A stretch of DNA of 24,824 nt from a virus: positions 1-24,824 of the IMG/VR virus record IMGVR_UViG_3300021400_000064; one strand, 5' to 3'. Made by a program: the position numbers and the translations under genes. Of the stretch, positions 1 through 24,824 are shown in pieces; within the stretch, counting starts at the first letter, position 1; every line of letters starts with the position of its first letter. The notes under the pieces are model-generated. The model worked only from the letters and a program-made list of their open reading frames with translations. It ran no database searches and was not told the origin of the DNA.

Positions 1-107
1 AACCCATATACAGGCATTCATTATGGGCCTGCGCGTAAATACCGCACATTAGCGCAGATTGTTGATAGAGATGTCTATACTATTGTTGAGGAGCGTAATG
101 GCTGGGG
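1..107. repeat. Terminal direct repeat copy 1 (identical to 24718-24824). This is a circular-contig overlap or terminal redundancy; the unit length is 24,717 bp.
   Basis: aacccatatacaggcattcattatggg...gagcgtaatggctgggg occurs at both ends of the window. The repeat lies inside an open frame, and 24,717 = 3 x 8,239, so the frame is preserved across the junction. Confidence 0.95.
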
Positions 108-2553
108 TAGGTTAAAAGAATACTATCACGGCTGGATTATGTTATCAGCAACAGAAACGATAGTAGGACCTGGTTAGAACCCAGATTATGATACGCCAAC
201 AGACCAAACCGCAGTTATTCCATTCGCGGAGCATATAAATATTACTCGTTTGACTGTTGATAGATTGTGGGCTTATGTTCCAGCAGAAGAAAGTTGGATA
301 AAAGCCGAAGATATCAGTTATGATTAGGCTGGTAAGTTATATAATGCTTTGGGTATATTCACGATTGACTTGGAAAATGATGTAGATTGGACTACCGTTG
401 AAAGCATTGATGATATTGGTATTAAACCTGAATTAAGGCATTTACATTATCACGATTATGCCAATTATGTCTATGATGGTGCTCTTACAAAAGAAGCATT
501 TAGTAATATACACGATTTAGAATTTGTCTATCCGGAGACGGTTTATAATTATAATTGTATATATTATAAGGGTAATAAGTTCGCGGATAATGAATTGGGT
601 AGAACCGCATTTAGTTGCTCTATAAGCGATTGGAACCCTGATTGGGACCATTTCATTGAAACAAGTTGGATTGTTGATGAAGATGAAAATGAGGTATTGC
701 CAGAGTTGTATCGTGGCGCACCTATTTCTCTAAATTGGGATTACTTTGGCTTTGACCGCAACCTCTTCAAGCCAACAGGATACTATGATGGTATCTATTT
801 ATGGAACCCACATCCATGGGATGAAGAGCATCTATACTTCACTTTTGAAGAATTAGTGCGGACAGGCACATAGTATGTTATTTACCCATTCTTCGACCCA
901 CACGCTTATAAGTATTGGCATATGGTAAGATTAAAAACCGTGTCAGACGCAGGTAATGTTAATCAAACTCAATTCTGTTTAGACAGTGATAACACTTATA
1001 CAGAAGGTGTTTGGGAAATTGAACCGCCTATGAAGCGTGTTTCAACAGACAGATTGTATAACCAAGACTGGGGCGCTGGTTGGTATAATGATACAACAAC
1101 GCTACCAGCGGGTTGGCATATAAATGCTAATACAAGCATTTCACCATTATATTTCTCATTAGGTGGTGGCCCATTCGCAAATTATACAAGTAATTCTGTA
1201 AATGGAAAAATTAAGTCCGTAAGCAGAGACGGATAGGGTGCTATCTTATATCCTGACGATTATTTCAAGGATTTATTGAAGAGCACTAATTCCGCGCAAG
1301 TAGATAGTGCGACTGCTGAATTGGCATTGCGCGAAGAATTGGGCTTATTAAATATGATGGAATATGAGCCAAACGGTTATTACCGCATTACAGGTAGCGC
1401 GATTTCACCATATAGTGATTTGTTCTTATCAAAGATACCTTATCATAACGAATATGAACCCAAGTATTACATTTCCACTATTTATAATCGTTATTTCGGT
1501 TAGAATAGAACAAGTGGTTATGCTAATAAATGGCGACCAATTACATCACAGCATTTGTCTCTATATCAACAGGAATGGAACCCGATACAGATGAAGGGCG
1601 ACCCAAATGCGTGGAGAAGCAAACCCTATATTGGTGGCGGCGTCTATCACGGTGTGCGCTCTTATTTAAATGGTATATTAGAGCATTACTATGTGCCAGT
1701 TCCAAAAGGAATGTGGTATGAGTGGGATGGCGTCAAGAGCCAAATCACAGGTAATGGCTTATTCGATTTAATTACGGGCACGCTAAAAACTGATGACCCT
1801 GGCTGTGTTTTCACATATGATTATCGTAGCGCTGATGGTGAAGAACCATACGAGCATCGTTATGATTATTTCAGTGGATGGCAGTATGATGAAACCACTA
1901 TTCAACCTGCTATGTGGTATCAAATCACAGCATCAACAGACACATACAATCAACCTGACGCACTTGCTAATAAAATTCGCACATTATCAAATGGTTTGTA
2001 TCTACCTGTTGATAAACAAACACAAGATACAGAGAACCGTGTATAGGGCTTATGGTATCATAGTGCTAACTACTGGTTCAAAGTTAATAGCAACATATCT
2101 ATTGCCACGATGACTGGCACGCTAACAACAGAAAAGATTACAGCCGCAGTTATTCCAGATACGAATACAACTATCACGGTATTCAACTATGATGCGTATG
2201 ATAATCCTGATGGTAGCGCAACTTCAACAAGAGCGAATAATGGTAGTTTCTTACTCACGAGTTATTACACTTATAAAGTAGGGAATAAGACATTATTATT
2301 CAGCGGAAATAAGTGGTATGATATGGCGCATACCTCATTAGCGCACGAAGAAATGAATAATAATTATGTAGTAGCAGTAGATAGGTTAAATTATTACACC
2401 TATCCTATTGAAAATGATACATATAAAGCAGGATAGTATTTGGCTGGCGACCGTCTGTTTGTTCCATATCGCTCTTCTCGTAATACGAATTGGTATTACA
2501 CAGGACAGGGTTGGGTCAAATACGCAGATGGTAATTTATCATTAGTTGAATGA
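1..2553 (+). CDS. C-terminal part of the giant (~2,890 aa) tail adhesin/fibre protein; it continues from 18598..24717 across the junction.
   Basis: Frame 1 is open from base 1 to TGA 2551-2553 and is broken only by TAG (175, 325, 871, 1234, 1501, 2044, 2434). Track ORFs 349-873, 922-1236, 1276-1503, 1555-2046 and 2110-2436 all lie in this one frame. SH3b-like segments are present (VYTIVEERNGWGRLKEYYHGWIML; RLFVPYRSSRNTNWYYTGQGWVKY). Confidence 0.8.
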
Positions 2554-2564
2554 GGAGTGGTAAT

Positions 2565-2918
2565 ATGACAAGTAATTACTATCCTATTGTATTAGATGAG
2601 CGTGAAGGCAGTTTCAGTATTACAAATACTGGGACTGCCCCATCCCCTTGTGTAATCACGATAGTCCCAAGAGTAAGTTTTATCACTATGAAAATTGAAG
2701 GGTTAAGTGAAGACCCTATTGTTTTATCATAGATTGCCGCAAATGATGTTGTTGTTATAGACGGTGAATAGCGTGAGTTCCGCGTAAATGGCTCACTCGC
2801 TTGGGATAAATTTGATGGCTGGCAGTTCCCGCACTTGGAGCCTGGCATCAACACAGTAAAAATTACGAACTCTAATATGATGGATATTGAAGTTGCGTAT
2901 AACGCGAGGTATATCTAA
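2565..2918 (+). CDS. Small tail protein resembling the C-terminal (galectin-like) domain of siphophage distal tail proteins (Dit).
   Basis: GAGGAG RBS at 2552-2557 lies 7 nt before the ATG. Peptide: ITNTGTAPSPCVITIV...VVVIDGE[TAG]REFRVNGS...FPHLEPGINTVKITN. There are 2 in-frame TAG (2730, 2769) and the gene ends at TAA 2916. An alternative ATG at 2550 has no RBS. Confidence 0.7.
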
Positions 2919-2919: not shown

Positions 2920-3948
2920 ATGATGAAAGTTTATGACACCGAGCATCAGTTTTTAGGTTTTTTCACTGATGGCTTACGGAATGTATATACAACAGAAACA
3001 TTGGAAACAGGGACCAAAAGTCTCTGTTTCCAAATGCCCTGTTTAGATAAATATTTATCATTAGTGCGGGAAGAACATTATATAGAAACGCAAGATTATG
3101 AATATATCGTAAAAGAATTGGTATTAGAAAAGAATGATTTCTTTACTGTCTATTGCGTTGCGAATATAGAAGAATTAAGTGGAACCACTTTTAGTGTATT
3201 TGATTGTTTTGAAAAGAACCCCGAACAAGCATATACCTATTGTTTGTAGCCTGTTCCAGCGTGGAGTTTAGATTATCAAAGTCAAGTAGCAACGGTCCTA
3301 ACTTTATAGACCGCTAATGTTTCTGCTCTTGAAATGATAAGAACTGTTGCGGAAATGAATAGCCAAGAGTTGTGGTTTGATGCCAAGAATAAGGTATTGC
3401 GCGTTTATGATAGAATTGGGCGCGCGAAGAGTAATATATACTATTCAAATGAATTAAAATTGCGGCAACTGTCAAAACAGTCATCAACTTACGATTATGC
3501 TACTGTTTTATATCCTATTGGTAAAGATGGATTAACTATTGAGAGTGTAAATAATGGTAGAAACTTTATTGAGAATTATAGTTATACCAACAAGAGGATA
3601 GTAAAGTATTGGTATAATGATGATATTGATGTGCCTGAACGCTTATTAGGTGCGGGGTAGGATTATTTAGATAGTATTGCTGAACCCGTGAGTAGTTATA
3701 AAGTATCGTTGAGTGAATTAAATCCCGACACACGATTGGGCGATACGATTATGCTTGTAGATAATATAAAGAAATTAAAGCAAAAGAAGCGAGTAGTAAA
3801 GATAGTGGATTTCCCATTTGAACCCGAGCGCAGTAATGTTGAAGTATCAAATAGGCAAGCAAATTTTGCGCGCACATTTGTAAAGCAACAGAAGGTATTA
3901 GATAAAGAAATCAAGTATATCCGCTCGGTAATCAAAAATATTTAGTAA
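2920..3948 (+). CDS. Baseplate hub / tail-associated protein N-terminal region (Tal-like, phage minor structural protein N-terminal family).
   Basis: Track ORFs 2887-3249, 3334-3660 and 3688-3945 are in one frame, joined by TAG at 3247, 3307 and 3658. Motifs: MKVYD..., LYPIGKDGLTIESVNNG, LGDTIMLVD, PFEPERSNVEVSN. A fourth TAG at 3943 is followed directly by TAA 3946. Confidence 0.8.
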
Positions 3949-4011: not shown

Positions 4012-4179
4012 ATGAGAGAAATAATACAAAACCTAAATAAAGCATCACTCGCTTCTGCTACTGGCATTTCTTATAGTAGATTACGCAAATATGCGGCAGG
4101 TATCATTTAGAACCTGACTGATGAAGAGAAACAAAAGATACGAGATTATCTATTAGCATTAGCAGAAGCGTTTAGATAA
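4012..4179 (+). CDS. Small helix-turn-helix protein (55 aa).
   Basis: GAGAGG RBS, then ATG 4012. Peptide: MREIIQNLNKASLASATGISYSRLRKYAAGII[TAG]NLTDEEKQKIRDYLLALAEAFR, ending at TAA 4177. One in-frame TAG (4108). Confidence 0.6.
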
Positions 4180-4208: not shown

Positions 4209-4820
4209 ATGAATGAAGAATGGAAACTTATTACTTGTTTAAAAAAACAGGGGTTCTCAAATCGGCAATATGAAGCATCCAATTTGGGAAGAATTAGAGT
4301 GAAAAATACAGGCTATATAATGAAACCCGCCACGCACAATTCTGGCTATATAATGTTTAGATACTCTTGGTATGATGTGAATGGAAAAAGATAGTAGGCA
4401 TTTGAATTATGGCATCGGGTTATCGCAAAAACTTGGATACCTAATCCAAATCACTTACCGCAAATAGACCATATCAATAGAGATAGACTTGATAATCGTG
4501 TTGAAAACCTGCGTTGGGTAAGTAATAGTGAAAACCAACACAATACTGATAGAACACTAAAAAAGAAAAAACTATTTAACCGTCGCAAGCCAGTATATAA
4601 AATAGATAATAATTTTAATATCGTAGATGTATTTGAAAATGCTATAATATGTGCGGAACAAGAGGGAACAAGCATACGATAGATAAATAGGATGTGTAAT
4701 GGTGATAGGCATCCTAAAAAGGGCGGTATTACTTATACATAGACATCTTTCCTTGAAACAAAAGGAATGAAGTTGATAGAAGATAATGATGGACCGCGCA
4801 TAATAAAAATTGACAACTAA
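4209..4820 (+). CDS. HNH homing-type endonuclease (203 aa).
   Basis: The N-terminal segment EEWK...[10 protein letters not shown]...MKP..NSGY continues through a TAG-TAG pair (4392-4397) into [44 protein letters not shown], the HNH core. Two more TAG follow (4680, 4740). The gene ends at TAA 4818. Confidence 0.85.
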
Positions 4821-5205: not shown

Positions 5206-5210
5206 TAACG

Positions 5211-5492: not shown

Positions 5493-5915
5493 ATGATAAG
5501 ACAGATGCCAGTATTAGCCCACAAGGGTGATAAGTTTGTTGCGGGACAAGCATTTTGGAGTATCCCGCAAGATATTCTAATTTATGCTTTCAAAAATCTT
5601 ACTTATAATGAAACGCAAGTTTTAGTTTATTTAATTGGTAATAAGCCCAAGTGTGAAGAAGAAGATTATAAAGGTTGGCAGATTAGTAATATCGAAGATT
5701 GTGTGAGTGGTAATGATAGAACCATTCGTGCGGCAAGAGCCACTTTGGCGCAAATGGGGTTTATTCGTCAAATACCTAATCCTGATGGTAAAACATATTC
5801 TACTATTGTTGTTGATTTTGATTGGATTAGAACAGTAGTAAGAAATGGTTGGGATAAAGAAACAACAATAAAAAACTTTGGCGGTTCCCCAGAACCGCGA
5901 ATTGGTAGCAAATGA
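5493..5915 (+). CDS. Winged-helix replication initiator-like protein (140 aa).
   Basis: AGGAGA RBS. Peptide: NETQVLVYLIGN...ISNIEDCVSGNDRTIRAARATLAQMGFI (wHTH-like). The 3' end and downstream flank carry the iterons. No TAG. Confidence 0.6.
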   Translation: MIRQMPVLAHKGDKFVAGQAFWSIPQDILIYAFKNLTYNETQVLVYLIGNKPKCEEEDYKGWQISNIEDCVSGNDRTIRAARATLAQMGFIRQIPNPDGKTYSTIVVDFDWIRTVVRNGWDKETTIKNFGGSPEPRIGSK

Positions 5916-6000
5916 CGGTTGTGTAGAACCGTGATTTGCTAGGAAAATACGGTTGTGTAGAACCGTGATTTGCTAGGAAAATGAGGTTGTGGAGAACCGC
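5882..6000. repeat. Iteron array (candidate origin of replication) followed by an AT-rich tract (6001-6035).
   Basis: There is a 34-bp periodicity with units starting at 5882, 5916, 5950 and 5984. The two central units are nearly identical over their 34 bp (they differ only in the last base) and read cggttgtgtagaaccgtgatttgctaggaaaat. Each unit has a CGGTT...AACCG inverted core. The first unit is diverged and lies inside the rep 3' end; the last is partial. Confidence 0.75.
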
Positions 6001-6144: not shown

Positions 6145-6336
6145 ATGGAGAACAAATTATTTTATTGTTATTCTAAAAACTTATGTTTATTCCTTAAATT
6201 AAATGGGATAAATTATGAAACAAAAGCAAGGCATCCTAATGGCACATATTATTATACATACATCAAAAATGATAAGTTGTTGAAGGGCTTATCATAGTGG
6301 AATAAATATAAAGAAACATTCGCGCAAATGAGGTGA
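6145..6336 (+). CDS. Small hypothetical protein (63 aa), apparent paralog of the 5290 gene.
   Basis: AGGTGAGG RBS. Peptide: MENKLFYCYSKNLCLFLKLNGINYETKARHPNGTYYYTYIKND...LS[TAG]WNKYKETFAQMR. One TAG (6295). Ends at TGA. Confidence 0.55.
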
Positions 6337-6341: not shown

Positions 6342-6728
6342 GTGGCTATAAATGAAAAACAAAAGATGATGGTAGAACGCTATATTGCTAATGGGTATAA
6401 TTTGCGTGAGGCTTATGAGGCTACATATGGAGAAAAAAAGAACCCCGCAATTTCATATCCCTATCAAATGATAAAGAAACCTGCGGTATAGGAATATTTA
6501 CAGAAGCGGCGTAAAGAGATATATGATAGTCTCCAAATTGATGCCGAGCGCATTGCTACTGAATTAGCAGATGTAGCATTTGCCCCAAAGGGTGATGAGT
6601 TCTACACAGCGCAAGCAAAAATCCAGGCATTAAATATATTAAGTAAGAACTTGGGATTACAGACACAAAAGGTAGAGACTAACCAGACTATTGAAGTGTC
6701 TATTGAAGATGAAACTACAAATCCGTAA
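6342..6728 (+). CDS. terS: Terminase small subunit.
   Basis: GTG start after AGGTGA. Peptide: KQKMMVERYIANGYNLREAYEATYG...KKPAV[TAG]EYLQKRRKEI. One TAG. Ends at TAA 6726 and overlaps terL by 20 nt. Confidence 0.75.
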
Positions 6729-7950
6729 GAATATTTTTAATAGTGTATATTATCCTCATCTATTGGATTACAACAAAAGATATGAAGTGTATTATGGTGG
6801 AGCAGGTTCAGGTAAAAGTGTGTTTGTCGCGCAAAAGTTAGTGGTTAAAGCATTGCGCGAAAAGCGCAAGATACTGGTGCTCCGCAAGGTAAATAGAACA
6901 ACAAAAGCATCTACATTTCAACTCTTGTTGGATACACTTACAAAGTTTCATATAATTAATCTGTGCGACATAAATCGCACAGACTTTTCTATATCTTTAC
7001 CTAATGGTTCATAGTTCTTATGTGCGGGATTAGATGATACTGAAAAGATTAAGTCTATTGTTGGACTGACTGATGCTTGGCTTGAAGAAGCAACAGAATT
7101 TAGTGCTGATGATTTTAGTTAGGTTGATTTGCGTGTGCGCGACCCTAACGCGCAAGGACAGTAGATAATACTATCATTTAACCCTGTATCAAAAGCGAAT
7201 TGGTGCTATTTATGGTTCTTTGCGCCAAATGAAGACCTCGCAGAGTTTCGCGCAGAAGCAGAAATAATTTAGACGAACTATTTAGATAATAAGTTTTTGC
7301 CGCAGAAATATATCGATGCTCTATTGCGTATGAAGAACACTAATCCTGTGTATTATACCATTTATGCTCTTGGTTAGTTTGGTTCTCTTGATAAATTAGT
7401 GTATAACAATTGGCAGGTTATGGATTTCGATAAAGACCGCATCAAAGGGTAGTTGCTGTGTGGTTGCGACTTTGGTTATACAAATGACCCGACCGCATTT
7501 GTGGCGTCTTACCTTGTGCCGCAGGAGAACCGCATATATGTATTTTAGGAGTGGGGCGGCACAGGTTATCTTAATAATTAGATTGCTTCTGCTATTGAGC
7601 GGATGGGGTTTGCGAAATCGGTTATTATATGTGATAGCGCCGAACAAAAAAGTATTGAAGAGTTGCGGCAAGCGGGCATTCGGCAAGCAAAGCCAAGTGT
7701 GAAGGGTAAGGGTTCCGTCCTTCAAGGAATACAAAAGTTATAGTAGTATGAGTTGATTATTCATCCCAACTGTGAGTGTATAAAAGAAGAGTTAGAGAAC
7801 TATGCTTGGGTGAAAGATAAGCAAACGAATGAGTATATAAACGAGCCTATTGATAAATGGAACCATTATTTGGATGCTTTGCGCTATTCGTTATAGTGTA
7901 TGGATGCCCGTGTGTAGTTATAGACTATTGATAAAAAATTACTATTTTGA
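6709..7950 (+). CDS. terL: Terminase large subunit (413 aa).
   Basis: Walker A YGGAGSGKS; DAWLEEA (Walker B-like); nuclease motifs CDFGYTNDPTA, CDSAEQKSIEEL and NHYLDALRY. All lie in frame 1 across 13 TAG codons (7012, 7120, 7162, 7270, 7375, 7450, 7546, 7579, 7741, 7744, 7894, 7915, 7921). The first TAA/TGA in frame is TGA 7948. Confidence 0.92.
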
Positions 7951-7966
7951 TAGGAGGCTGGTGTCA

Positions 7967-9355
7967 TTGATAACTTTATCTCGTGATACAGAATTGACGC
8001 CCGAACTTATAAAAAAGATTGTGGATACTCATAAGACAAGTGAGTTGCCGCGATTAGAAAAATTAAAGAGATATTATGAAACCAAGAATGACATACTCAA
8101 CCGACAGATGGCAGACAGCACTAAACCAAACAATAAGATTGCGAATGCTTATGCCAGTTTAATAACGAGCACGCTTGTTGGTTATTTTGTTGGTGAGCCT
8201 ATTACATATACCGCAGATGATAAACAAATGATGAATGAACTTCAACTTTTGTTTGAGTATAATGATGAGGCTGATGAGAATGCGGAATTGGCAAAGAACG
8301 CAAGTATTTATGGCGTTGCGTATGAATTATTATATATGGAGCAACAGGATGAAGGTATGGGCCGCCCGATGTTGCGGTTTCACACCTTGGATACGAGAGA
8401 ATGTGTGCCTATTTATGATGATACTATCGAACATAATCTAATTGCCTTCATTCGTTATTATACAACGAAGAATGTGTTGAATGATACTGATTTGCTCGTG
8501 GTAGAGTTAATTACAGATGCGGATACGAAGAGGTATGAAGCAACTGTCGCAGGTGGATTACATTTAGTTGATGAAGTGCCGCATTATTTTGGTATGGTTC
8601 CTGTTGCTATTTACAAGAATAACGAAGAGTTAATTGGTGATTTTGAGCCAGTTATTAGTTTAATAGATGCTTATGACACGATGGAAAGCGATACGGTAAA
8701 TGATTTTGATTATTTTGTAGATGCTTATTTAGCACTCTATGGATTTACCGCAGAAGCAGAAGACATTGTGAAGATGAAAGAAAACCGTGTTCTGTTGATG
8801 GATGAGGGCACAAGTGCGGAATGGCTCATCAAGAATACTGATGATACTAATGTCGAGAATATGAAGATTAGGTTAGATAAAGATATTCATAAGTTCTCGC
8901 ACTGTCCTGATATGAGTGATGAAAACTTTGCGGGGAATAGCAGTGGTGTTGCTATACAGTATAAGTTATTAGGCACTGAAAATCTTATTTCTATTAAAGA
9001 GCGCAAGTTTAAGCGTGGATTACAATAGCGTTTAGAACTTATCGCGCAGATGTAGGGATTGATGGGCGCTAATTTTGATTGGCGTGCTATTGATATAATG
9101 TTTAGACGGAACATACCTGCTAATTTGAGTGAGATTGCTACTGTTGTTAGCCAGTTGAAGGGTATAGTGTCTAATGAGACATTGTTAGCACAGATACCTT
9201 TTGTTGATGATGCGACTGCGGAGCAGGAGAAGTTGAATGATGAGAAGGAACAGGATAAAATGAATAATCCGTTCTTCCAGTTGGATTATGAGACTAATGC
9301 TATGTAGCGAAATAAACAATCACAAACGCAGACAGACGGTCAAGAGGTTGAGTAA
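7967..9355 (+). CDS. Portal protein (SPP1 gp6-like).
   Basis: AGGAGG at 7952-7957; TTG 7967 is the best-spaced start, with GTG 7961 as an alternative. Peptide: ELPRLEKLKRYYETKNDILNR...KPNNKIANAYASLI. Continues through TAG 9026, 9053 and 9305 to TAA 9353. Confidence 0.88.
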
Positions 9356-10269
9356 TGAACCCTGACAAGAAAAAACAATTAGCAAGGTATTACGCCACAC
9401 AAGAAAGAGTGCTTGAAGCGTTAGCATTAGCATATGAATAGACTGATGAGTTATATAAAATACTAAAAGAAATCACTGATGAAATGTGGGAAGATTTGCG
9501 GCCCGCCATTCAAGAGTTGATAGAAAAGTATTTAGATAACCCTCACGCGCAAATTGATTTGGATAAGTATCCCGCGATTAGGATGGCGATTAGAGAGATT
9601 GAGATGCGCCATCATCAACAGTTGTTGGAATACTATTGGATGGGCTATAATGTAATTACAGAGAGTTTGGTAAGCACTTATCAAAAGGCGAGTTTAGATG
9701 CGTATTAGATTATGTCTGTTGTTCCTACTTGGCAGAATTAGGAGATAAATCCTGTCATAAGACAATAGGCAGAAGTGCGAATTACAGACACTTACATTAC
9801 AAGCAATAAGTTGCCTATTCCGTGGTGTAGTGATGGTAAAGTATATTCGTAGCGTTTATACGGACACATTGCTAATTTTTAGTCTAAATTGAACTATGTA
9901 TTGAGTGAAGGTATCGCCAAAGGGCGGGGAATGGATTGGATGATGTAGGCTTGGCGCAAATTAGTTGGCGCCACTGCTTACGATGCCGCGCGCCTGTTGA
10001 AGACAGAGACTATGGCTTTTTATAATGAGGGCTTGAAAGATAGTTATATTGAAATGGGCGTTGAGTATGTTGAGATTGTGGGCGATGCCGAATGCGGTGG
10101 AATATGTTTAGATTATGTTGATGGCGACCCGATTAGGATAGTTGATGCCGAAATAAATGTAGAGTTGCCGCCTTATCATCCTAATTGTGCTTGTTCTTTT
10201 GTTGCGTGGGAAGAGACTGAAATCGTAGAAAATCCAGAAAATACATCAGGGAGCCAAGATGAAGAATAA
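9355..10269 (+). CDS. Head morphogenesis protein (Mu F / SPP1 gp7 family).
   Basis: TAATG stop-start overlap. Track ORFs 9484-9708 and 9997-10269 share frame 1 and are joined by TAG codons (9439, 9706, 9739, 9766, 9850, 9880, 9946 in total). Peptide: WCSDGKVYS[TAG]RLYGH...ELPPYHPNCACSF. Confidence 0.85.
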
Positions 10270-10294: not shown

Positions 10295-10373
10295 GGCTTC
10301 TCGGTTTTTTAAGTTGATACCCTGTCTCTTAATCAGGGTGTCCGGGGTTCGAGCCCCCCCCGAAGGCGCACCA
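10295..10373 (+). tRNA. tRNA-like element (degenerate or non-canonical). The loop reads CUU and is not a CUA suppressor.
   Basis: Canonical T arm: GGGG-TTCGAGC-CCCC (10344-10358). The anticodon-like stem CCCTG/CAGGG (10320-10324 / 10334-10338) encloses TCTCTTAAT. A 5-nt variable region is present. The acceptor pairs at only 5 of 7 positions (GGCTTCT vs CGAAGGC), and the D-arm region is a T-rich stretch with no convincing stem. Confidence 0.35.
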
Positions 10374-10380
10374 TACGGAA

Positions 10381-10406
10381 AAGCCTCGCAATAGCGAGGC
10401 TTTTTT
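10381..10406. terminator. Rho-independent terminator (partly bidirectional).
   Basis: aagcctcgc pairs with gcgaggctt, followed by TTTTTT on the + strand. An A-run precedes the stem, giving a weaker U4 terminator on the - strand. Confidence 0.75.
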
Positions 10407-10423: not shown

Positions 10424-10452
10424 TTGACACCGTGATTTTTTTAGTCTATAAT
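10424..10452 (+). promoter_or_regulatory. Consensus sigma70/sigmaA promoter P3.
   Basis: TTGACA (10424-10429), a 17-nt spacer, TATAAT (10447-10452). It fires antisense through the minus-strand gene toward scaffold and capsid. Confidence 0.75.
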
Positions 10453-13376: not shown

Positions 13377-15760
13377 GTGAAGAGAATGTAAATATTAACA
13401 TTGGTGCTACTATTGAGACTGACCCTGAAATAGTAGTTGAGTTTGCCAACCCTACATATCAAGGACCCGCTGGACCTGCGGGACCTAAGGGTGATAAAGG
13501 CGACCCATTCACTTACGAAGACTTTACCGCAGAACAACTTGCGGCACTCGTTGGACCAAAGGGTGATAAGGGCGATGATGGCGAACCTGGCCCCAAGGGC
13601 GACCCATTTACATATGAAGACTTTACACAAGAACAGTTAGCCGCATTAGTTGGACCACGCGGACCGCAAGGCGAACAGGGAATATAGGGCATACAAGGAC
13701 CGAAAGGTGATACTGGCGACCGAGGCATTTAGGGATTACAAGGACCCCAAGGTGAGTAGGGTGTATAGGGACCACAAGGTATCCAAGGCGAGACTGGACC
13801 GCAAGGGCCCAAAGGCGATAAAGGAGACGCATTCAGTATTGCCGCGATTTATAGTAGCCTTGCTGAAATGAACCTTGACTTCTCCAATAGTAATGTTAAG
13901 TTTGGAGATTTTGTTATCATTACTTCTACTGTTGATGACCCAGACAATGCCAAACTTTATGTGAAGACATCAAGCGGTTTCAACTTTATTACTGATATGT
14001 CAGGTGCCGCAGGCATCCAAGGCCCAAAGGGTGATACTGGTGAGACAGGTGCTATTGGACCATAGGGACCGCAAGGTGTATAGGGTATTCAAGGACCGCA
14101 GGGTGAAAAAGGGGATACAGGACCTGCTGGAACATATACCGCAGGTGAAGGTATTGACATTACAAATGGTGTAATTAGTTCCACTGTTGATGGTGCTATT
14201 TATTCCGCTGGCGATGGTATTTCTATTGATGCCAATAATGTTATAAGCACGACAAAAGATTATTATATTATTAAATATCAAAATAATATAGCAAATTATA
14301 GTGCGGAAGATTTACAAAGATTGTATGAACTTGGTGGTTTCCAAGAGACCGCAAAACCAGTTGTAATAGAATATATGTATAAACACTATCATTATGCTGG
14401 TAGAACAGGCACTTAGATGGTGTTTGTAAATTGGAAGGCTGGCGGCACTGCTTCGCGCCACACAGTAGAACCAAATGCTATTATTTATTATATGGATAGT
14501 TTGAAAGAGACAATAACGAATTAGTTATTAGTCGATACTAATATAGGTATATATTCTTCAAATATATTCAGTAATAACGCTAATAACAACCCATCAGGAT
14601 AGAGTAATTCTAATTTATAGACGGAATTACAATATATTAAAAACAATTACACAAAGACCGCTGATTTAGCGGCTGTTGCTACATCGGGCAGTTATAATGA
14701 TTTAACTGATAAACCGACCATTTCAGGCGGCACCACTTATACTGCGGGCACTGGTATTAACATCACTAATGATGAAATTAGTGTTGATGCTACTGCTTTA
14801 TCATATAATGATTTACAGAATAAACCCACTATCCCAACAGTGCCGACCAATGTAAGTTCTTTTACTAATGATGCTGGGTATCTAACTACGCATTAGGATA
14901 TTAGTGGTAAGGCGAATAGCGCGGATTTAGCAACTGTTGCTACTTCTGGTTCATATAATGATTTATTAGACAAGCCAGAAATTAGCGAGGGTGCTACCTA
15001 CTCTGCTGGTTATGACATTTATATCGATGAAAATAATGTCATTAATGTTGATAATTTTATTGTTGATGTTAATTTAATGCTTGGCTCACAATCTGGTAGT
15101 TGGGAACTATTCTTTAATGGAAGTCCTTGGATAAATAGAAGTGTCCCAAATGACCCAGATAATGACGCGTTTGTTTATTTATATGATTGCTATTATGCCA
15201 GCGGTAAGAGTTGGGTTAATACACATTGCCATATCCATCCCAATGGATAGAACGCCGAATGGGGAAAAATTGTTTATGTCGATGGCGATGAAACGAGCAC
15301 TACAATCACTTTTGGCATATTCTTTGCGCCGAATTACTATTTAGAGTTAGGATATCGGCAACTTCCCACTGATGAAACACGCAGATACTTATATAGCGCT
15401 TCTGGCACCATAATTACGCCATCTTTGGCTTGGGATAGAACTAATAATATAGTTAAGGTTCGTGTGGAAAATGGACTAAATAAATTATATATAGACCCCA
15501 CCGCTATTTCCTATAATGATTTAACTAATAAACCAACTATACCTGACTTGACAGGATACGCAACTCAAACATATGTTGATAATGCTATTGGTTAGGTTCC
15601 TACTTATAGTGCTGGCACAGGTATTAGCATTAGTGCGAGTGGTGAGATTAGTTGCTCTGTTGTTGATACTAATACTACATATACTGCTGGTAATGGCATT
15701 AGTATTAATAATGGAGTTATTTCTTTAAATTTAACTAATGCGAATGGGGTGAGTTATTAA
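13373..15760 (+). CDS. Collagen-like fibre protein (795 aa).
   Basis: Frame 2 is open from TTG 13373 (which overlaps TGA 13374) to TAA 15758, with 13 TAG. Gly-X-Y runs are unbroken across TAG. There are two [18 protein letters not shown] units and repeated SYNDL(T/Q/L)(D/N)KP(T/E)I motifs. The start codon is uncertain. Confidence 0.85.
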
Positions 15761-16377
15761 TGGCTAATGTAATTATTGATGATACTCATTTAAGTGATAT
15801 TGCTGATGCTATTCGCGGCAAGAATGGGAGTTTAAATACTTATACACCAGCATAGATGGCGGCGGCTATTAGTGCTATTGAAACTGGCGGTAGTAAAAAA
15901 GTGAAATGGTTGCGTAGCGATACTGATGCTTCCTACACTTATGCCACGTCTTTCACAGTTCCCGATGATATGAAAAGCACTGAATAGATACTTTTTTTGT
16001 TATATTATTGGAGAACTACAGCAAAGTTAGCGTGTCCTTTTTATATTAGAGATTTTGCGTAGTATCAAATAAATAGTAGGACATAGAGATACTGGATGCC
16101 GATAGGCCAGTTTCCTAATTTAGGTGCCACTCCAACTACGAATGGTGGCAACTGGATTGCCAAGGAAAGTAATACGTCATTTTAGGGCGATGTTTTACGC
16201 TGCGATTAGTTTTTATTATATAGCACTTTTACTTTTAGATACAGTTGGAGAACATTGAAATCAGGAACAATCATTACGCCTACTCATTATACTAAAAAAG
16301 CATCTGCTCTTACTGATAGCGCATCAGGCACTTCTGTCAGTGGCACAAATCGTATATTTGTTTTATATGAAGTATAA
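15760..16377 (+). CDS. Hypothetical structural protein (205 aa).
   Basis: TAATG overlap. N-terminal peptide: VIIDDTHLSDIADAIRGKNGSLNTYTPA[TAG]MAAAISAIE. Six TAG (15853, 15985, 16060, 16084, 16183, 16207). Ends at TAA 16375. The six-frame track shows no ORF here only because of the TAG codons. Confidence 0.6.
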
Positions 16378-16388: not shown

Positions 16389-16976
16389 ATGGGACTTCGA
16401 TGTGAATTAGATATAGAAGATTGGGAGTTTCCTATGGAAACTCCTATTTTACATAAACCGATTGATTATAGTGAGGGCTTATAGGTATTTTGCGACACAT
16501 TTATGGAAGTATCAACAGCATATTGTCCCGTAGACACAGGATATTTAAGGAGCACACTGACTGCTGATAATGATGGCATTTCTTGGGCTGAATGCTATAC
16601 AGATTGTGAATACGCATAGTATCAAGAATATGGGACTTGGTGTATGCCAGCATAGCCTTATTTTGAAAGAGCGGTTGAGGCAGCGTTTGAAGAAGCCACA
16701 CAGTATTGGCAAATTGCCATTGATGAAGCGATGGAAGAAGAGCAGGATGAATTACAAGCAATGGCGGATGCTGCGGAGGCAGAGGGAGATTTTGAAGAAA
16801 CAGTTAGTTTAACATATGAAGGAGTTGCTGCGTTATTTTTTTTATGGGTGTTTTCAACGATTATGTGGGGGATACACGAAATATTGAAATCCGCGTTTGG
16901 TGATGAAAAAAAACATAATGAGATGGAAAACATAATGAAAATAGGTTTATAGTTTTATGATATAGAGATTACATAA
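16389..16976 (+). CDS. HK97 gp10-family neck/tail-attachment protein with an acidic linker and a C-terminal hydrophobic helix.
   Basis: AAGGTGA RBS. Peptide: CPVDTGYLRSTL...EYA[TAG]YQEYGTWCMPA[TAG]PYFERAV, then EEEQDELQAMADAAEAEGD and GVAALFFLWVFSTIMWGIHEIL. Four TAG. Ends at TAA 16974. Confidence 0.65.
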
Positions 16977-16987: not shown

Positions 16988-17179
16988 ATGAATAAATTAT
17001 ATACTGCTCCCAAAGGTAAAGTATATGATTGGGCTGAACCGCATACAGCCCATATTGTTGAGCCTGACGGCACTATAACAGAAGTAGTAGAGCATTTATA
17101 TGCTAAATACTTGTCTATTGCTCGTGCCGACAGTATTGACAACTATATTTTGGTTGATGACCCGAGGGAGAATAAGTAA
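16988..17179 (+). CDS. Hypothetical protein (63 aa).
   Basis: AAGGAGGGG RBS and an intact ORF. No TAG. Confidence 0.55.
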   Translation: MNKLYTAPKGKVYDWAEPHTAHIVEPDGTITEVVEHLYAKYLSIARADSIDNYILVDDPRENK

Positions 17180-17571
17180 TGTTAGCAACAACCAAGAAAA
17201 AGTTTTGTAAGTTCTTGCGCGCATTAGAATATAATGTTGATGATAATGGTAATTATCGTGAGGAGTTTCCTTGGCTGATGTTGAGTATGGGTGGCGCAAG
17301 GGTATTAAAATCTAACGATTTAAATATGACTGAAATCCAACTCAAACTTGATATATTCAGCACTTATACGGGTGAAAAAGAGATACTTACTATTGTCGAT
17401 AACATTAATAGTCATATTCGCGCATTTATGGATGAGAATGCGGAAATCCAATATGTGTTTATGCGCTCTTTGCGTATAATTGATGATAAAGAGACAGGGC
17501 CTGTTCGCAAGCACGGGATAGCGCAGTTCTCTTTTATTGTGGCGCAGGAGGATATAAGCGATGGCGAATAA
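17179..17571 (+). CDS. Putative tail completion/terminator protein (130 aa).
   Basis: TAATG overlap, and a position directly upstream of the major tail protein. No TAG. The function is inferred from position only. Confidence 0.45.
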   Translation: MLATTKKKFCKFLRALEYNVDDNGNYREEFPWLMLSMGGARVLKSNDLNMTEIQLKLDIFSTYTGEKEILTIVDNINSHIRAFMDENAEIQYVFMRSLRIIDDKETGPVRKHGIAQFSFIVAQEDISDGE

Positions 17572-17950
17572 TGTTTAGAAGGGCATAAATATAGTCCTAA
17601 AAATAGGTGAGACTTTATTGGGCGGGCAGTTAGGTGCTACGCTCATTTAGTCTGCTTCTTCTATTGATATTACAAATAAAATTACAGGCGAATGGCAAGA
17701 GGTTTTAGAGGGTATAAAATCTTGGTAGATTACAGGTAATGGTTTATATGTAAAGAATAGTATCACATATAAAATGCTTCAAGATGCCTTTAATACTAAT
17801 ACTGCTATTGATGTAGAAGTAATGCTTGACGAGCATCGTTATGTCGGTAAGGCAATTTTAGTTGAGTTCCCACTTACTGCGGTTTATAACGGAACATATC
17901 GTTATAATTTCCGCTTATTGGGCGATGGAGCACTGACGATAAGTGAATGA
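17561..17950 (+). CDS. Major tail (tube) protein, TP901-1-like (129 aa).
   Basis: AGGAGG lies 9 nt upstream. Peptide: IVLKIGETLLGGQLGATLI[TAG]SASSIDITNKITGEWQEVLEGIKSW[TAG]ITGNGLYV...YRYNFRLLGDGALT. Three TAG. Ends at TGA 17948. Confidence 0.75.
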
Positions 17951-18443
17951 GCGCATTGTTGAGATTGATGGTAAAAATTATCGGTTCAAAATTGGACTTC
18001 GTAGTATAATTTATTTACAGTCTCTTTCAAAGATTGATGAAGGTGATATGTTTGTCGCTGGCATAATTACCTTTAATGATATTCCTATAAAAACGGCAAA
18101 GTTGATGTATCAGCGGCTTTGTCGTCAAAAAGATTATCAGCCATTATTTGAATAGGTTATCTCAACTCCTTTCATTGATGTGCGGGATTTATATCGAAAA
18201 GCCGTTGGCGAACTTGGTATAAGTCCCGCCATTTTCTACCAAATGTCGCCAGATGAAGTGGAATTAGCCTATCAAGGGTATTTGCGTAGATAGGAATTAT
18301 CCGCAAACCTTACTAAATTAGCAGTATTATAGGCTTTACACGATGACCGAAATGAGATTACTTTGGCGGCAACGCCTGAATATTCAGTGGGGACAGAACC
18401 TGACCGAGAAAAAACATTTTCTGTATTGGGGATAGAAGAATGA
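17943..18443 (+). CDS. Tail assembly chaperone-like protein, possibly a very short tape-measure-like protein (166 aa).
   Basis: It occupies the position after the tube gene. Peptide: LGISPAIFYQMSPDEVELAYQGYLRR[TAG]EL. Three TAG (18153, 18291, 18330). Ends at TGA 18441. Confidence 0.5.
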
Positions 18444-18598
18444 CAGATTATGAAACAGTAAAAAAGAATGTAGCAGATTAGATGAGTTAGGTGTCTTATC
18501 AGTTTGAGCGCACATCAACTTTACAAGAGGATAATACTGCTACTCTATTGAATGACATTGGTTTAGCGATAAACCGTGAAGGAGGTATGAGTATCTAA
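18440..18598 (+). CDS. Small protein (52 aa), or the -1 frame extension of the preceding gene.
   Basis: ATGA overlap upstream and TAATG overlap downstream. Two TAG (18479, 18488). Confidence 0.4.
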
Positions 18599-21500
18599 TG
18601 CTAATCAACGGTATAAATATAAATACCCTTGGTGTCAAATTATATGATAGAGTTATTAACTCTAACACTGTTGATACTACACAAGAATGGTTAGATGGTG
18701 ATATTCAGCCCACTTTTGTTAGACAGTAGGACCGTTTCAAAACTATGACACTTGCGTTCCTTGTATTAAATACTGATGAGGAAAACGCGTTTTTGCGTAT
18801 AAGCCGTTTAACGCAAGCATTACGCAAAGCGACATTATAGTTTGATGATATTAGTCTTACTTTTGATACAACATTAGTGGGCGCGGCAGAACCTGAACGC
18901 TTAAAGAACGGTAATTTTATCGTTAGATATACTCTAAACAGTGATTACGCGTAGGGTAATCGTGAAATATATACGACAGATGCCAAAGCAACAAGCGCAT
19001 TTAGGCTCACCGTTCTTTACTACAAAAACACAACTCAATTAGTCGGGCAGGATGTATATACTATTCGTGCTGGGGCTTTTGATGTTGGAACACCAACATT
19101 AAGTTCTATTGGTATTGATGTGGATAAATACCGCGAACAACACTATAATGCTGGTGCCGCAACTAATATGGGTTCGATGGAACTTACATATGAAAATTTA
19201 CAGTCTCTTGGGACTTTAATTATTAACTATGCGCCTGTGCGCTACAATCTCACACTTGCTTACTATATGAATAGTGGAGAGGGTTATAATGAGACTTTAC
19301 AAGAGACGATAACCTTTACACATCCACAACTTCAAAATATTAAGACCATCGGGCAACTATTTGATGTAAATACTTACCGTCCTGATGGTTATCGTGCGAC
19401 TATTGATTATAGCGGACCTCTTACTGTTGAAGGACTACTTGCGGCATCTCCTATTGCGGTTATGTATGATGTAGTTCAAAACGAACAGAGTAAGAATATA
19501 ACAGTAGTTTATCGTAATGAAAATGACGCTGGCGGTTATGATATTATAGATAGTGAATTATTGAATGTGCGTGAAACCGCTATTACTGATGGTAAAACTT
19601 TACGCGACATTTTCAACCTTAACGCATATAAGCCTAACAGCCTATACTATTTTGATGGGACCATTGAGGGCTATAATGCTGATGACCTTATTACTTATGC
19701 GGATTTGAATACAACTTATTACATCAACTACCGCAGACAAGAGCACACTATCTATGTTGAGTATTATGCTGGAACCTATCCAGATTGGTATCGCCTCACT
19801 AATATTCCTCTTACAGTAAAATATAAAGATGCGTATGAAGAAGAGTTTAATATTACAGACATTGGTTTGGATTTAGACCGCTATCATACAGCAGAGTATC
19901 AAAGAGGACAACTTTATAATGGCGATAACTTTGAGACATTTGATGATGTAATTACTACTGGCGTTCTTCAAGTATATTATGTGCCTATTGATTTCACTAT
20001 TAAGGTTCGTTATAAGAAAGATGATGCGAATGAATACACCGAAAAAGATGTAGTAATCAACGCATTACAGTTCTTTGGCGACCCAGTATTAAGTGATATT
20101 ATAGACATAAATACTGACCGTCCAGAAGGATATCAGTTAGATTTAGAAGAGAGTTATAACGGTGAAATTACACTTTCCGCACTCACAACGAGTTCTCCAA
20201 TATATATTGTATATGAAGAAATACAAGAAGTGCGGCAAAAGAATATCATAGTTAGGTATAAGCAACAGTTATCAAGCGCCTATTCTACCATAAATACTTC
20301 CATTTTGGTTATTAATGAAGCAGACTGCGTTGGTGGCGTGCGGTTGCGCGACCTTATCAACTTAAATCTCTATCGTCCAGATTACTATGATGGTGGTATC
20401 TTGAATGGCGCGAGTGAGAGTGCTTTATTGACTTTTGATGATTTACTCGCAAATTATGAAGTATTATACCGTGCTTCTACATACAACACTCCTGTATATT
20501 ACTATACGGATGATGTTGATGAGCGTAATTGGATTGGTAGTTCTGTAATTAATTATACAGTCCTTGATTTTACAACAGAAACAACACTGTATGATTTAGG
20601 GTTAGACCCAAATCAATATAAACCTTCATACGCCGCAGATGGTGTAGTTCAATATAATGGCGCTATTTCATTTAGTGCTTTACGCGGCTTATCAAGCATC
20701 AACATTGTGTATGATAGTATTGAAGAGCCAGAAGACCCAAGTGGTATTGATTATCCGCACAGGTTCTTATTCTTACAACATAATGATTTAGGCGCATATG
20801 AAAATCAGCATCCAGAATGGACTATGAACCACGCTTATATTAATACAGGCGTAAGCGTCCAGGATATGTCTAAATTGACAGTTATTATGGAGGCAAAGCG
20901 TGTTGATGAATATGTGGCGCCACATACAGTAAATGCGGGCTATGCTTACTTATTCGGTAGTTCATCTGCTCTTGGTTAGTATTATATGCGGTTTAACAAC
21001 CAAACGATGTATGGCACTAATCTAACGGGTGTAAATACTTATGAAGCAAAAGCAGGTAATACCGTAAATGCGTTAGTGCTGACAGAGGAGAACGCTATTG
21101 GTTGGAGTGAAAATTCTGGTATTTACTCTACATAGAATTATAATGGCTATTCAACAGCCACATTTACATATAGCAACCGTATGCCGACAGAGCACGCGCA
21201 AATGCCATATCCGCTTTATCTGTTCGCTAATAATAACAGCGGTTCCTATGCTGATGGACTTGCGGGATGGGGCATTTACAGTTGTAAGATTTTGTATGAT
21301 GGATAGTTATTGCGTGATTTTATCCCCGTTCAGTATTACGACAAGATTGGCGATAAGATTGCGCCAAGCAACTGTTTATATGATAAGATTAGCCAGAACT
21401 TCTTTGAAGATGCTACTGGCAAGAACAGTTTTAATATCATTGATGATGAGCGCTACACTGATACAAACCCAGAACATCAAATAGGTTCGTTCTATGTAAA

Positions 21501-24500
21501 TTATTATAAAGACGATATCCTTTATCAAACATCACAGATTTTCTTCCGTGGTAATGATTTTGATGAAGAATGGGATATGTATGATAAACTCAAAGTTGAT
21601 GATTTCCAACCGCCTTATTATAAATCTGGTAAGATTACTAACTTAAATGAGATTGCCGCGATTAATTTTGATAATTTAAATAATTTCATTTTTAAAGTAG
21701 TATATGAAGCGCAAGAAAATCAGTTTCAAGTAAATTATTATAAAGACAGTATTAATGAGAATAATTTGATTGCTTCTGATACTATTGCTCTTCAAGAGAG
21801 TGATTTCTTCCAAGTCCCTACTTTTGGTGATATTGTTCGTTTGAATAAATACCGTCCAGAAGGTTATAAAACAGACTTTGAGTATCCTGGCGCGAAGGTA
21901 TCCTTATCTCGCGTGATGGAGAACGCACCATACAATATTTTGTATGTGCCAGCAGGAACAGAAACAACTTATATCACAAGTATAAAATACATTAAAAAAG
22001 TATTTGGTATTCGCACTTATGAAACATTAGGCACTGTTGAAGTAGCGCTTACTGATAGTCAGTTCCGTGATGGCGAATATATTGAAAACTTTATTGATTT
22101 TAATGCGATGAAGCCAGCCAACTATTATAAAGATGGCGCGCCTTATCAGTGGTATTTAAAAGATATTAGATTAGATACGCCCGACAAATTAGCGCAAGAG
22201 TATATCGTAGTATATCAACCAGAAGAGCAAGCGTTAGAAATACGGTATTATAGAGATGAAGTAGCCGAGGAGAGCCTCATCGCAAATACTACCTGGATGA
22301 TTTCTGTTGATGACTTTGATGGGGAATTTTACTTGGTAGATTAGTTGCCTAATTCATTTATTAACCAATATAAACCTGTAAATGCTGATGGCGGTATTCT
22401 ACAAAATACTGATGTTCTTTACACATTCGCAAGTTTAGCAGAATACGGGCATATTGATATTATTTATAATAGTATTGCTTCTCCTGATGACCCAACTAAT
22501 GTTTCACGTATTGGTAAAGTGCTGTATTGGACTGCTAATGATATTACTTATAGTGATAGACAGACCTATACTTTGGGGAATGGTAAAGGTGTTAGCCATA
22601 CATATATTAATGGTGGTATAATTCCATATATAGATTTAGGATATACACCAAAAGAAATTGGTCGTCTTAAAGTTGAATTAAAAGCGCAAATGCTTACCGA
22701 TGGTTTTGCGACTGATACTACTAATTATGGTTATCAAGTTCCAGATTATACTTATGGATTTGGTTATTATGGTGCTTTGGGTGGTCCTGTGCTTGGAACA
22801 ACGCATAGCATCCAAGAGACTATGGATAAAGATAATGTAGGTATTACTTATCATAAATATATCCCGAAAAAGAGTTTTGCTTCTAATGGCGCTTTTGCTA
22901 TTCGCGGGCATATACCAAAAGCCTCAAAAGGTGTATATACTGATGTTGGATTACGCACGATAGACGGGCAGGATTTCTGGCTGACCTCTTTTAAAGGAGC
23001 AAGTGAAAGTCGTAGTGTATCCTTAAATCCGTGGATTATGAAATATAATGCGTTATCTGGCTTTTATCGTAAAGGTGCTTATGAAGATACAGATGATAAT
23101 TATAATTATATTAAAGCGTATAGTGATTATGATTATACTCGCACTTATAGTTTAGAGACATATCAAGATAGCAATATGAAGACTAATGAGAGTGAAAATG
23201 GTCTTTGGTCTTGGATGGCAGACCCGATTACGATGACATTAGATGCTTATCACTCTTATGCTTCTGCTTATGACTTTGGCACAAGCAACACTCTTACATA
23301 TACTAACTTTGATGAGAGCGCTGATATAGATATTTTTGAGAATAGATGTAAGCCTCGTGGCTCTATTACCTTATTCCGCACTCGTAATCCTGATACAGGC
23401 AAAATGAATATAATGCCATTTTCCGCAAAAACATACCCACTAATTACAGGTTTGGGTGTAATAGGCTTTTCTCAAAGTGAATTAACAAATATGTTAAACC
23501 CATTTAGTGATAATTTTACTGGTTCTGTTTCCAGGATAATTTTAGTCGGTTCTCATTATGATAGTGATAGTGATTTTGTTGATAGACAAGGCGACCAAGT
23601 AAATCCTGACTATCAGCCCCCAAGCGCGGTATATGAGTATATTACACAAGAAGTGAATGTTGCTTATAGTGATTTCCCTGTGCCAGTTTATCCACAAATG
23701 CGTGGTATGGCAGTATGGAGCCTCAAACTTTGGGATTAGGACCGTCTTGTGCGTGATATGATACCCGTCAAAAAAGGTGAAAAAATTTATGATTATGTAA
23801 TGCCTGATGATGGTTTATTTGACCTTATTACAGAGATTTTCTTTGGGAATAATAACCAAGGCGGCACATATACGCAAACCTATTGGACGAGTGATAGTGA
23901 TAATAAGCATAATGGTATGGTAAGCGAAACAACCACTATTGATGCGGCAGATGTATTACCTCTTCATTGTATTGATGACCCTTGCTATTATGGTAAGATT
24001 ACAGAAAATTATTATGATGAAGATAATCATTTTATTGCTAATCAGTATGTTGATGTTCCTACTTGGTTCTATGAAGGTAATACAACTCTTGCCGACGAAT
24101 TACAGTATAATGATTATAAGCCAGATGATTATCATTTAGATGGTATGCTTGATACTGATGACCCAGATAATCCAAATGAAGATTGGACTTTGGAAGAGAT
24201 TTATGATTAGGGTTTAATTAACATTTATTATAAATTACGGACATACGCTAAATCAGTAGTATATTATAGAGATAATTATCGAATTGGTTCGCGGGATTTA
24301 TTCTTCTCATTGAAGGATATTGAAAACGCAAATTCTTTAAGTGATTTAGGAATAGATGCTTCTTATTATCAAACAGACACATTTAAACCTGGGCGTCTGG
24401 TATTTAACAGTAGCATATTAGAGAATAATGATGTTGCTGGTTTTATTGATGCGCCAAGCCCGATTGTCGTTTATGATAAATATAGCAAAGCAGAACGCCC

Positions 24501-24824
24501 AGATTTACTCTATATTGAGTATTATCGTGGTGGAGCGTATGATGACCCAACAGCCGAGATTACATTAGATGGTAATAATGTAAATTACTTCAACTGTGAT
24601 TTACCTGCTGTCGTTCTAAATCCAAATGGCACTATTAAATATCGTAATCACTATCACAGCGCGATGTATGAGGATGAAGACCCTGGATACTTTGTGCCGT
24701 ATCAAGTGCGAGTTATCAACCCATATACAGGCATTCATTATGGGCCTGCGCGTAAATACCGCACATTAGCGCAGATTGTTGATAGAGATGTCTATACTAT
24801 TGTTGAGGAGCGTAATGGCTGGGG
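18598..24824 (+). CDS. N-terminal and central part of the giant (~2,890 aa) tail adhesin/fibre protein, with a Dit-like N-terminal domain; it continues at 1..2553.
   Basis: ATG 18598 follows GGAGG. Frame 1 contains no TAA or TGA to the window end, only TAG (18727, 18838, 18952, 20977, 21133, 21304, 22342, 23737, 24208). Track ORFs 19120-20979, 21310-22344, 22345-23739 and 23749-24210 all lie in frame 1. There are 13 or more ~80-aa repeats with the motif N.Y(K/R)P..Y. Confidence 0.8.
24718..24824. repeat. Terminal direct repeat copy 2 (identical to 1-107).
   Basis: Exact 107-nt match to the window start. Confidence 0.95.

Follow-up and report, generated by a model that had tools for sequence, protein, structure and literature searches.

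Does the virus genome held as IMG/VR record IMGVR_UViG_3300021400_000064 read the codon TAG as an amino acid instead of a stop, and if it does, which amino acid is inserted and what supplies the decoding? The stretch analysed comprises positions 1 to 24,824 of this record (24,824 nucleotides) and is called the window throughout. An earlier note, made from the letters alone, had proposed a reassignment of TAG from stop to sense, probably to glutamine (Gln), across the whole genome. Our analysis bears this out: coding coverage grows from 73% to 92% once TAG is taken as sense, protein domains span the TAG codons and Gln fits the positions concerned. Judging from the sequence, UAG very probably serves as a glutamine codon (genetic code 15) in this small phage of siphovirus type, whose gene set is Bacillota-like. 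The recoding is real, but the phenomenon as well as this kind of phage have already been described.

TAG inside reading frames

The window is a complete, circularly closing genome, as its first 107 bases recur as its last 107 (1..107 identical to 24718-24824), a terminal direct repeat which leaves a unit of 24,717 bp. This length can be divided by three, and a single reading frame crosses the junction uninterrupted. The G+C content is 37.6% and nearly all genes sit on the plus strand. When coverage is measured as the share of the genome in stop-free stretches of at least 80 codons, the standard code gives 72.8%, and reading TAG as sense gives 91.8%, 98% of that on the plus strand. With TGA as sense the value is 79.1%; with TAA as sense it is 84.0%, of which only 48% lies on the plus strand, so that the frames opened in this last case are spurious, AT-rich antisense noise. 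The longest open reading frame (ORF) expands from 619 to 2,890 amino acids (aa) with TAG as sense; the comparison of codes which the earlier note had suggested thus yields a gain in coverage and in ORF length alike. Our curated TAG-sense annotation holds 26 genes and renders 95.1% of the genome coding, in agreement with the claimed density of about 95%. The standard code shreds two thirds of the genes, including the ORF of 2,890 aa, and gene calling with code 15 is needed for annotation. The genes and features are as follows.

18598..24824, then through the repeat to 2553, plus strand: giant ORF, 2,890 aa, 16 TAG, ending in TGA
18598..24824, plus strand: 5' part of the giant ORF, 9 TAG
1..2553, plus strand: 3' part of the giant ORF, 7 TAG (175, 325, 871, 1234, 1501, 2044, 2434)
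2550..2918, plus strand: ORF similar to the Dit C-terminal part, 122 aa (phrog_33, E = 4e-14), 2 TAG
2920..3948, plus strand: Tal-like tail protein (Prophage_tail PF06605, E = 7.9e-25), 4 TAG, the last at 3943
4012..4179, plus strand: small helix-turn-helix protein, 1 TAG
4209..4820, plus strand: NUMOD4/HNH endonuclease, 4 TAG, including a TAG-TAG pair
4810-4838 and 4928-4956, plus strand: two sigma-70-type promoters with extended -10, perfect (12/12), upstream of a TAG-free block
4987-5205, 5290-5472 and 5493-5915, plus strand: putative early block, three small TAG-free genes
5882..5999, no strand assigned: three 34-bp iterons with an inverted repeat, likely replication origin
6145..6336, plus strand: 63-aa ORF, 1 TAG
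6366..6728, plus strand: small terminase subunit (TerS; PF03592), 1 TAG
6709..7950, plus strand: large terminase subunit (TerL), 413 aa, 13 TAG, which make up 48% of its Gln positions
7874..9355, plus strand: SPP1-type portal protein, 3 TAG, start codon uncertain
9355..10269, plus strand: MuF-like head protein, Pfam match below the Pfam cut-off, 7 TAG
10298..10367, plus strand: degenerate tRNA-Lys(CTT)-like remnant, attP-type fragment
10379..10406, no strand assigned: bidirectional intrinsic terminator hairpin
10424..10452, plus strand: perfect sigma-70-type promoter, which drives the integrase in relatives
10453..10695, minus strand: 80-aa ORF without TAG, 73% identical to the post-integrase ORF of relatives
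10843..11418, plus strand: head scaffolding protein, 0 TAG among 15 Gln codons
11435..12370, plus strand: major head protein, 0 TAG
12437..13376, plus strand: head-tail adaptor and two small ORFs, 0 TAG
13373..15760, plus strand: collagen-like tail fibre, 13 TAG
15760..16377, plus strand: 205-aa ORF, 6 TAG against 2 CAA/CAG
16389..16976, plus strand: Neck1 / tail-completion-like protein, 4 TAG
16988..17571, plus strand: 63-aa ORF and tail terminator, 0 TAG
17561..17950, plus strand: tail tube protein (PF06199), 3 TAG
17943..18443, plus strand: 166-aa ORF in the position of a tail assembly chaperone, 3 TAG

Counted over the 25 confident plus-strand genes, 81 in-frame TAG codons fall in 15 genes, slightly fewer than the roughly 83 in 16 genes reported before, and the previous tallies for TerL, the MuF-like protein and the collagen-like fibre recur unchanged in the recount. 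In the whole genome, 25% of the Gln codons are written TAG, and the majority of late genes contain it. All 25 genes end in TAA (15) or TGA (10) and none in TAG, as had been claimed, a result which is partly true by construction. The Pfam domain envelopes enclose 17 TAG codons (TerL 8, Tal 3, portal 2, tube 2, TerS 1, MuF 1) and not a single TAA or TGA; given that TAG makes up 21% of the off-frame stop triplets, such a distribution has a probability of about 3e-12. The Terminase_3 match runs across TAGs from position 1 to 200 of 201 (E = 3e-58) and is followed by Terminase_3C, and the SPP1_portal match likewise spans positions 3-413 of 416 (E = 4.5e-118). Prophage_tail, Phage_tail_2, Terminase_2 and HNH_3 are matched as well; the MuF match stays under Pfam's own cut-off (25.9 against 29.6 bits). 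The TAG-TAG pair said to precede the HNH core was located at 4392-4397, ahead of the HNH_3 core. In the collagen-like fibre the G-X-Y periodicity continues unbroken over its 13 TAGs, and the tract quoted from it in the earlier note was reproduced exactly. Homologous proteins do not terminate at the TAG positions: TerL is full-length in relatives which use the standard code and equals that of the window in length (413 aa).

A TAG is one transition away from CAG, and we therefore considered whether these codons might be left untranslated, the element being decayed or defective, or whether they arise from a sequencing, assembly or base-modification artefact in which the C of CAG is read as T. No support for either version was found. 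The frames are broken by TAG alone, whereas errors of the C-to-T kind would also turn CAA and CGA into TAA and TGA, none of which occurs in frame, and TAG faces CAA more often than CAG in the alignments described below. All 13 TerL TAGs are kept in three independent SRA assemblies of 96-97% nucleotide identity, and recoded relatives occur in many metagenomes; among the samples containing this phage are SRR27373466, SRR16606039 and SRR16606030. Decay, for its part, is at odds with the intact gene order and the high coding density, and lack of translation with domain matches that carry on over the TAGs. This explanation is already refuted by the present data, and its probability is practically nil.

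The Tal-like gene ends in TAG TAA (3943-3948), i.e. an in-frame TAG directly precedes the real stop. The TAG at 3943 may be the ancestral stop codon of this gene, now passed by one residue.

The residue inserted at TAG

The proposed assignment to Gln is supported independently by alignments within the family, by homologs from standard-code genomes and by direct codon exchange. In the first of these tests, the codons of the window were aligned with 35 related IMG/VR loci for all genes, and a codon alignment with 30 relatives was made for TerL. The residues facing the window TAGs give a log-likelihood (lnL) of -2127 for Gln and of -2828 for the next best residue, Lys. The fraction of Gln opposite the TAGs (0.37) matches the self-conservation of true Gln sites (0.38). 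The second test employed prophage homologs from bacterial genomes translated with table 11, i.e. the standard code, and gave an lnL of -2561 for Gln versus -2970 for Glu. Gln thus leads the runner-up by 409-701 lnL units in the two homolog sets. Moreover, TAG occupies invariant Gln columns of TerL (sites 144, 351, 352 and 402), with Gln found in 76 of 79 standard-code homologs at site 144 and in 61 of about 80 at site 352. CAA, CAG and TAG replace each other at conserved TerL columns, as in column 138 with 11 CAG, 11 CAA and 6 TAG, and strains 97% identical to the window differ from it by one such exchange, the SRA assemblies having TAG where the window has CAG.

Database TerL proteins that carry Gln at all 13 sites were rejected as evidence. 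They have themselves been called with code 15, their loci do not give them under table 11, and the argument would be circular; the codon-level and table-11 tests were used for this reason.

Could TAG be a sense codon for another residue, such as pyrrolysine, Glu, Lys or Tyr? ARAGORN names tRNAs with a CUA anticodon 'Pyl', and Glu and Lys are the second-best fits in the tests above. Since Bacillota form Gln-tRNA via Glu-tRNA(Gln), mis-acylation with Glu is conceivable as well. Against this stand the lead of Gln of about 400-700 lnL units in two independent homolog sets, the degree of Gln conservation in the TAG columns and the invariant Gln columns of TerL, so that we regard any residue other than Gln as very unlikely. 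Code 15 has furthermore been reported as validated by proteomics in other phages (PMC9523058).

Uneven TAG use and the source of UAG decoding

The earlier note had called the recoding genome-wide. As regards TAG being a sense codon this stands, but its use is not uniform: it differs between genes (permutation p = 1.5e-4) and 10 of the 25 plus-strand genes contain no TAG at all. The TAG-free set comprises the genes at 4987-5915, the scaffold, the major capsid protein and the three small genes after it (to 13376), and 16988-17571. At the opposite extreme, TAG accounts for 75% of the Gln codons in the 205-aa ORF and for 48% in TerL. All 13 Gln codons of the 4987-5915 block are CAA or CAG. The recoded relatives behave alike, with TAG amounting to 0 of 58 Gln codons in the integrase, 1 of 34 in the 140-aa protein, 4 of 138 in the scaffold and 2 of 61 in the major capsid protein. 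The block of small TAG-free genes lies directly behind the two promoters at 4810-4838 and 4928-4956 and adjoins the iterons; it is likely an early or replication module. The iteron region is probably the origin of replication, and the 140-aa gene probably encodes the initiator. The iterons hold a CGGTT(N5-6)GAACCG inverted repeat, overlap the 3' end of the 140-aa gene and are conserved in L001-L004. The 140-aa protein itself found no match in a PDB sequence search, and a single-sequence AlphaFold model of it, with a pLDDT (predicted local distance difference test) of 39, is unusable.

A search with TerL retrieved 252 relatives in IMG/VR, the closest on contigs of about 24-27 kb. This family mixes standard-code members without in-frame TAG, TAG-recoded members (up to 38% of Gln codons) and TGA-recoded members. 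In the last group (L017, L029 and L030), in-frame TGA stands at invariant TerL Trp columns and TAG is used as stop. The three code states interleave on TerL clustering and are found in the same metagenomes. TAG terminates 16 of 164 genes in standard-code relatives from these same metagenomes and 9 of 26 in the TGA-recoded ones. Relatives with few TAGs were considered as cases of incipient recoding and dismissed, nearly all of them resulting from an over-extended portal N-terminus, with two singletons left (L009 and L045).

If these patterns reflect the course of infection, the early and lysogeny genes (including the integrase in relatives) would be readable in a standard-code cell, whereas the terminase, portal, tail and fibre proteins would be finished only after efficient decoding of UAG has set in. 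With 13-16 TAGs per protein, a read-through of about 80-90% or more per codon would be needed; at 50% per codon, the full-length yield would fall to about 1e-4. A costly codon might then be shunned by those proteins made most abundantly, i.e. capsid and scaffold, and their avoidance of TAG suggests that decoding has a cost.

A different view would be that UAG already means Gln in the host, be it that its genome is recoded or that a strong amber suppressor is constitutively present, and that the phage matches its host, as Mycoplasma phages do with code 4. The complete genome lacks a decoding gene of its own, which accords with this view, and repeated switches between the three interleaved code states would be easier if the cell supplied the decoding. 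Host matching would not, however, predict the avoidance of TAG in the integrase, the putative replication gene and the early block, and relatives from the same metagenomes, standard-code as well as TGA-recoded, do stop at TAG. No bacterial lineage is known to us in which TAG stands for Gln. Topaz and Garnet prophages described in the literature, moreover, lie in standard-code hosts (10.1101/2021.08.26.457843). A host-matched code therefore appears improbable to us.

What, then, decodes UAG? ARAGORN at default settings found no tRNA in the whole genome; relaxed settings gave only a pseudo-tRNA-Lys(ctt) at 10298-10367 and no CUA anticodon over noise, and an Rfam scan of the genome revealed neither tRNA nor ribozyme. 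The tRNA-like stretch 10298-10367 was rejected as a suppressor: it bears a CTT anticodon, is degenerate in its 5' half and is the counterpart of the tRNA-Lys fragment (attP) that lies upstream of the integrase in relatives. When a covariance model was derived from the suppressor tRNAs that three related recoded prophages carry (L084, L089 and L092), its score on the window did not exceed 11.9 bits (E = 0.3) with filters off, against about 100 for true tRNAs, and it gave no match on 39 family loci; in the family sequence examined, no suppressor tRNA occurs in any of the three code states. No domain of a release factor, RF2 included, or of an aminoacyl-tRNA synthetase was detected among the 21 proteins scanned with Pfam. 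The seven ORFs scanned with PHROGs only (2550-2918, 6145-6336, 10843-11418, 12437-12733, 15760-16377, 16988-17179 and 17179-17571) gave structural or no annotation and no release factor or synthetase, and none of them is long enough for either.

Provided that the recoding is real, we estimate the possible sources as follows. Supply in trans, by an amber suppressor tRNA(CUA) of the host or of a co-resident prophage, comes close to an even chance without reaching it. An unrecognised factor among the TAG-free small genes of the phage is conceivable but rather doubtful; slightly less weight still is given to some other source, and the least to a host in which UAG is constitutively read as Gln. A broader proposal, that this 26-gene genome and the whole family of about 24-27 kb decode UAG as Gln efficiently without a phage tRNA, with sister phages doing likewise for UGA and Trp, strikes us as speculative and on balance unlikely. 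It might proceed by two routes. By the first, a TAG-free early protein (from 4987-5915, or from 10453-10695 on the minus strand) would disable release factor 1, whereupon the host tRNA-Gln(CUG) could read UAG as a near-cognate codon; in the TGA-recoded sisters RF2 would be disabled and tRNA-Trp would read UGA. By the second, the phages would rely obligately on the amber suppressor tRNA of a different co-resident prophage, a kind of genetic-code hitch-hiking. If either were true, the family would be a minimal comparative system for code switching in phages.

Several observations weigh against the account developed here. The late capsid and scaffold genes are TAG-free, which fits poorly with a pure early/late switch and requires the extra assumption that decoding UAG is costly. 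No gene was found to be common to all TAG-recoded relatives and absent from the standard-code ones, in a comparison with partial locus coverage (12-21 kb per locus); this weakens the idea of a phage-encoded factor and does not by itself prove supply in trans. A TerL profile run against 185,579 species genomes returned nothing above 55% identity and hence no integrated copy or close prophage, and an integrase search of JGI metagenome contigs returned phage-sized contigs only.

The genome alone does not settle how UAG is decoded in code-15 phages lacking tRNAs. With it, the code-15 phages, about half of which are without an explanation for UAG decoding, gain a complete and very compact member that lacks tRNAs. 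Close relatives in three codes (standard, TAG = Gln and TGA = Trp), together with a clear avoidance of TAG in early, lysogeny and capsid genes, make for a convenient comparative handle on this question.

Comparison with described phages and further features

Recoding of TAG to Gln has been described in eight phage clades, which mix codes 11, 15 and 4 (Borges et al., 10.1101/2021.08.26.457843). Among these, the temperate Topaz clade with genomes of 22±3 kb and Firmicutes hosts is of particular relevance; its curated prophage measures 23.7 kb and lies on an Oscillospiraceae contig; its integrase is free of TAG, and a tRNA serves as its attachment site (10.1101/2021.08.26.457843). Going by the published description, the present genome closely resembles this clade: both combine TAG-to-Gln recoding, a very small genome (24.7 kb here), a Firmicutes-type gene set and recoded structural genes. 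The relatives of the window phage, temperate like Topaz, carry a TAG-free integrase beside a tRNA attachment site, and their family mixes codes just as the published clades do. Differences exist in the lack of an integrase in the window and in its attachment remnant, which is tRNA-Lys(CTT)-like, whereas the Topaz prophage uses tRNA-Thr. One TAG-recoded relative, L011, on a contig of 27.2 kb, has a complete tRNA-Thr(CGT) at 6021-6096, about 270 bp upstream of its integrase, in agreement with the attachment site reported for the Topaz prophage.

TAG suppressor tRNAs were found in only 40% of TAG-recoded genomes (10.1101/2021.08.26.457843), and a Sup-CTA tRNA was detected in 52% of code-15 phages (Cook et al., PMC11210395). 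The earlier note had considered the small size without visible helper genes unusual. The absence of helper genes holds, but given the published size of Topaz phages and the fact that about half of the code-15 phages have no such tRNA, neither property singles out this genome. The code-15 phages of the crAss-like and Lak groups also read TAG as Gln, mainly in late structural genes, and keep early genes compatible with the standard code. In contrast to the window phage (24.7 kb, Bacillota-like, without Sup-CTA tRNA or RF2), they measure 100-600 kb, infect Bacteroidota and in many cases carry Sup-CTA tRNAs, some also RF2.

The nearest TerL matches are those of Clostridium phages and of prophages in metagenome-assembled genomes (MAGs) of Bacillota/Clostridia. 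The prophages L084, L089 and L092, more distantly related than the family loci, share a TerL of the Terminase_3 lineage (50-54% aa identity), contain in-frame TAG in TerL and its neighbours and reside on Bacillota MAG contigs of up to 156 kb. Unlike the window and the 39 family loci, each has, 1-4 kb upstream of TerL, an amber suppressor tRNA of canonical type. These tRNAs (L084 8822-8899, L089 5848-5926 and L092 3726-3804) combine an encoded CCA end with the anticodon CUA and start with G1, the 3' partner of the first acceptor pair being C, C or U. In Bacillota, tRNA-Gln begins with U1-A72, and the charging identity of these suppressors is therefore uncertain. The nearest cultured phages, Clostridium phages vB_CpeS_BG3P and phi8074-B1, share a TerL of 45-50% identity, an SPP1-type portal and the siphovirus layout, but they measure about 48 kb, follow the standard code and do not count as close relatives; none of the 1,588 matching phage records reaches 60% identity.

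In relatives, a TAG-free tyrosine integrase lies between the MuF-like and scaffold genes; ahead of it come a tRNA-Lys 3' half, a terminator and a consensus promoter (L003 13640-13780; L162 4440-4620). Of this arrangement, the window has retained the tRNA remnant as well as the terminator (10379-10406) and the promoter (10424-10452), the last abutting the conserved minus-strand ORF 10453-10695, but it has no integrase. Since the 10298-10452 unit stands ahead of the integrase in relatives, it looks like an attP region, and the missing integrase suggests that the phage derives from a temperate family and is itself lytic or plasmid-like. In L004 (24,746 bp), too, no integrase is present in the sequence examined, including the region after the MuF-like gene.

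The giant ORF of 2,890 aa, which fills 35% of the genome, lacks a Pfam match, and PHROGs yield a single weak one, to the C-terminal portion of an amidase family (residues ~2019-2088). The ORF is conserved in relatives, one of which carries a gene call of 2,864 aa, and its position after the chaperone-like gene is where a tape measure protein is expected; the genome showed no gene recognisable as tape measure, endolysin or holin. The Dit-like 122-aa ORF overlaps the end of the giant ORF by ATGA in another frame and matches the C-terminal part of Dit only.

Many 4-bp palindromes are extremely avoided throughout the window. AGCT (62 expected), GATC (68), GTAC (69) and TGCA (102) do not occur at all; CATG occurs once (80 expected), CTAG and CCGG twice each (57 and 30 expected) and ACGT three times (37 expected). 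Owing to the avoidance of CTAG, no in-frame TAG has a C before it. Avoidance of TGCA was tried as a driver of TAG use and rejected, as it explains only 5 of the 81 TAGs; wherever a Gln codon comes after an NTG codon, which is so in five cases, it is TAG. Both CTAG sites of the genome lie within the iterons.

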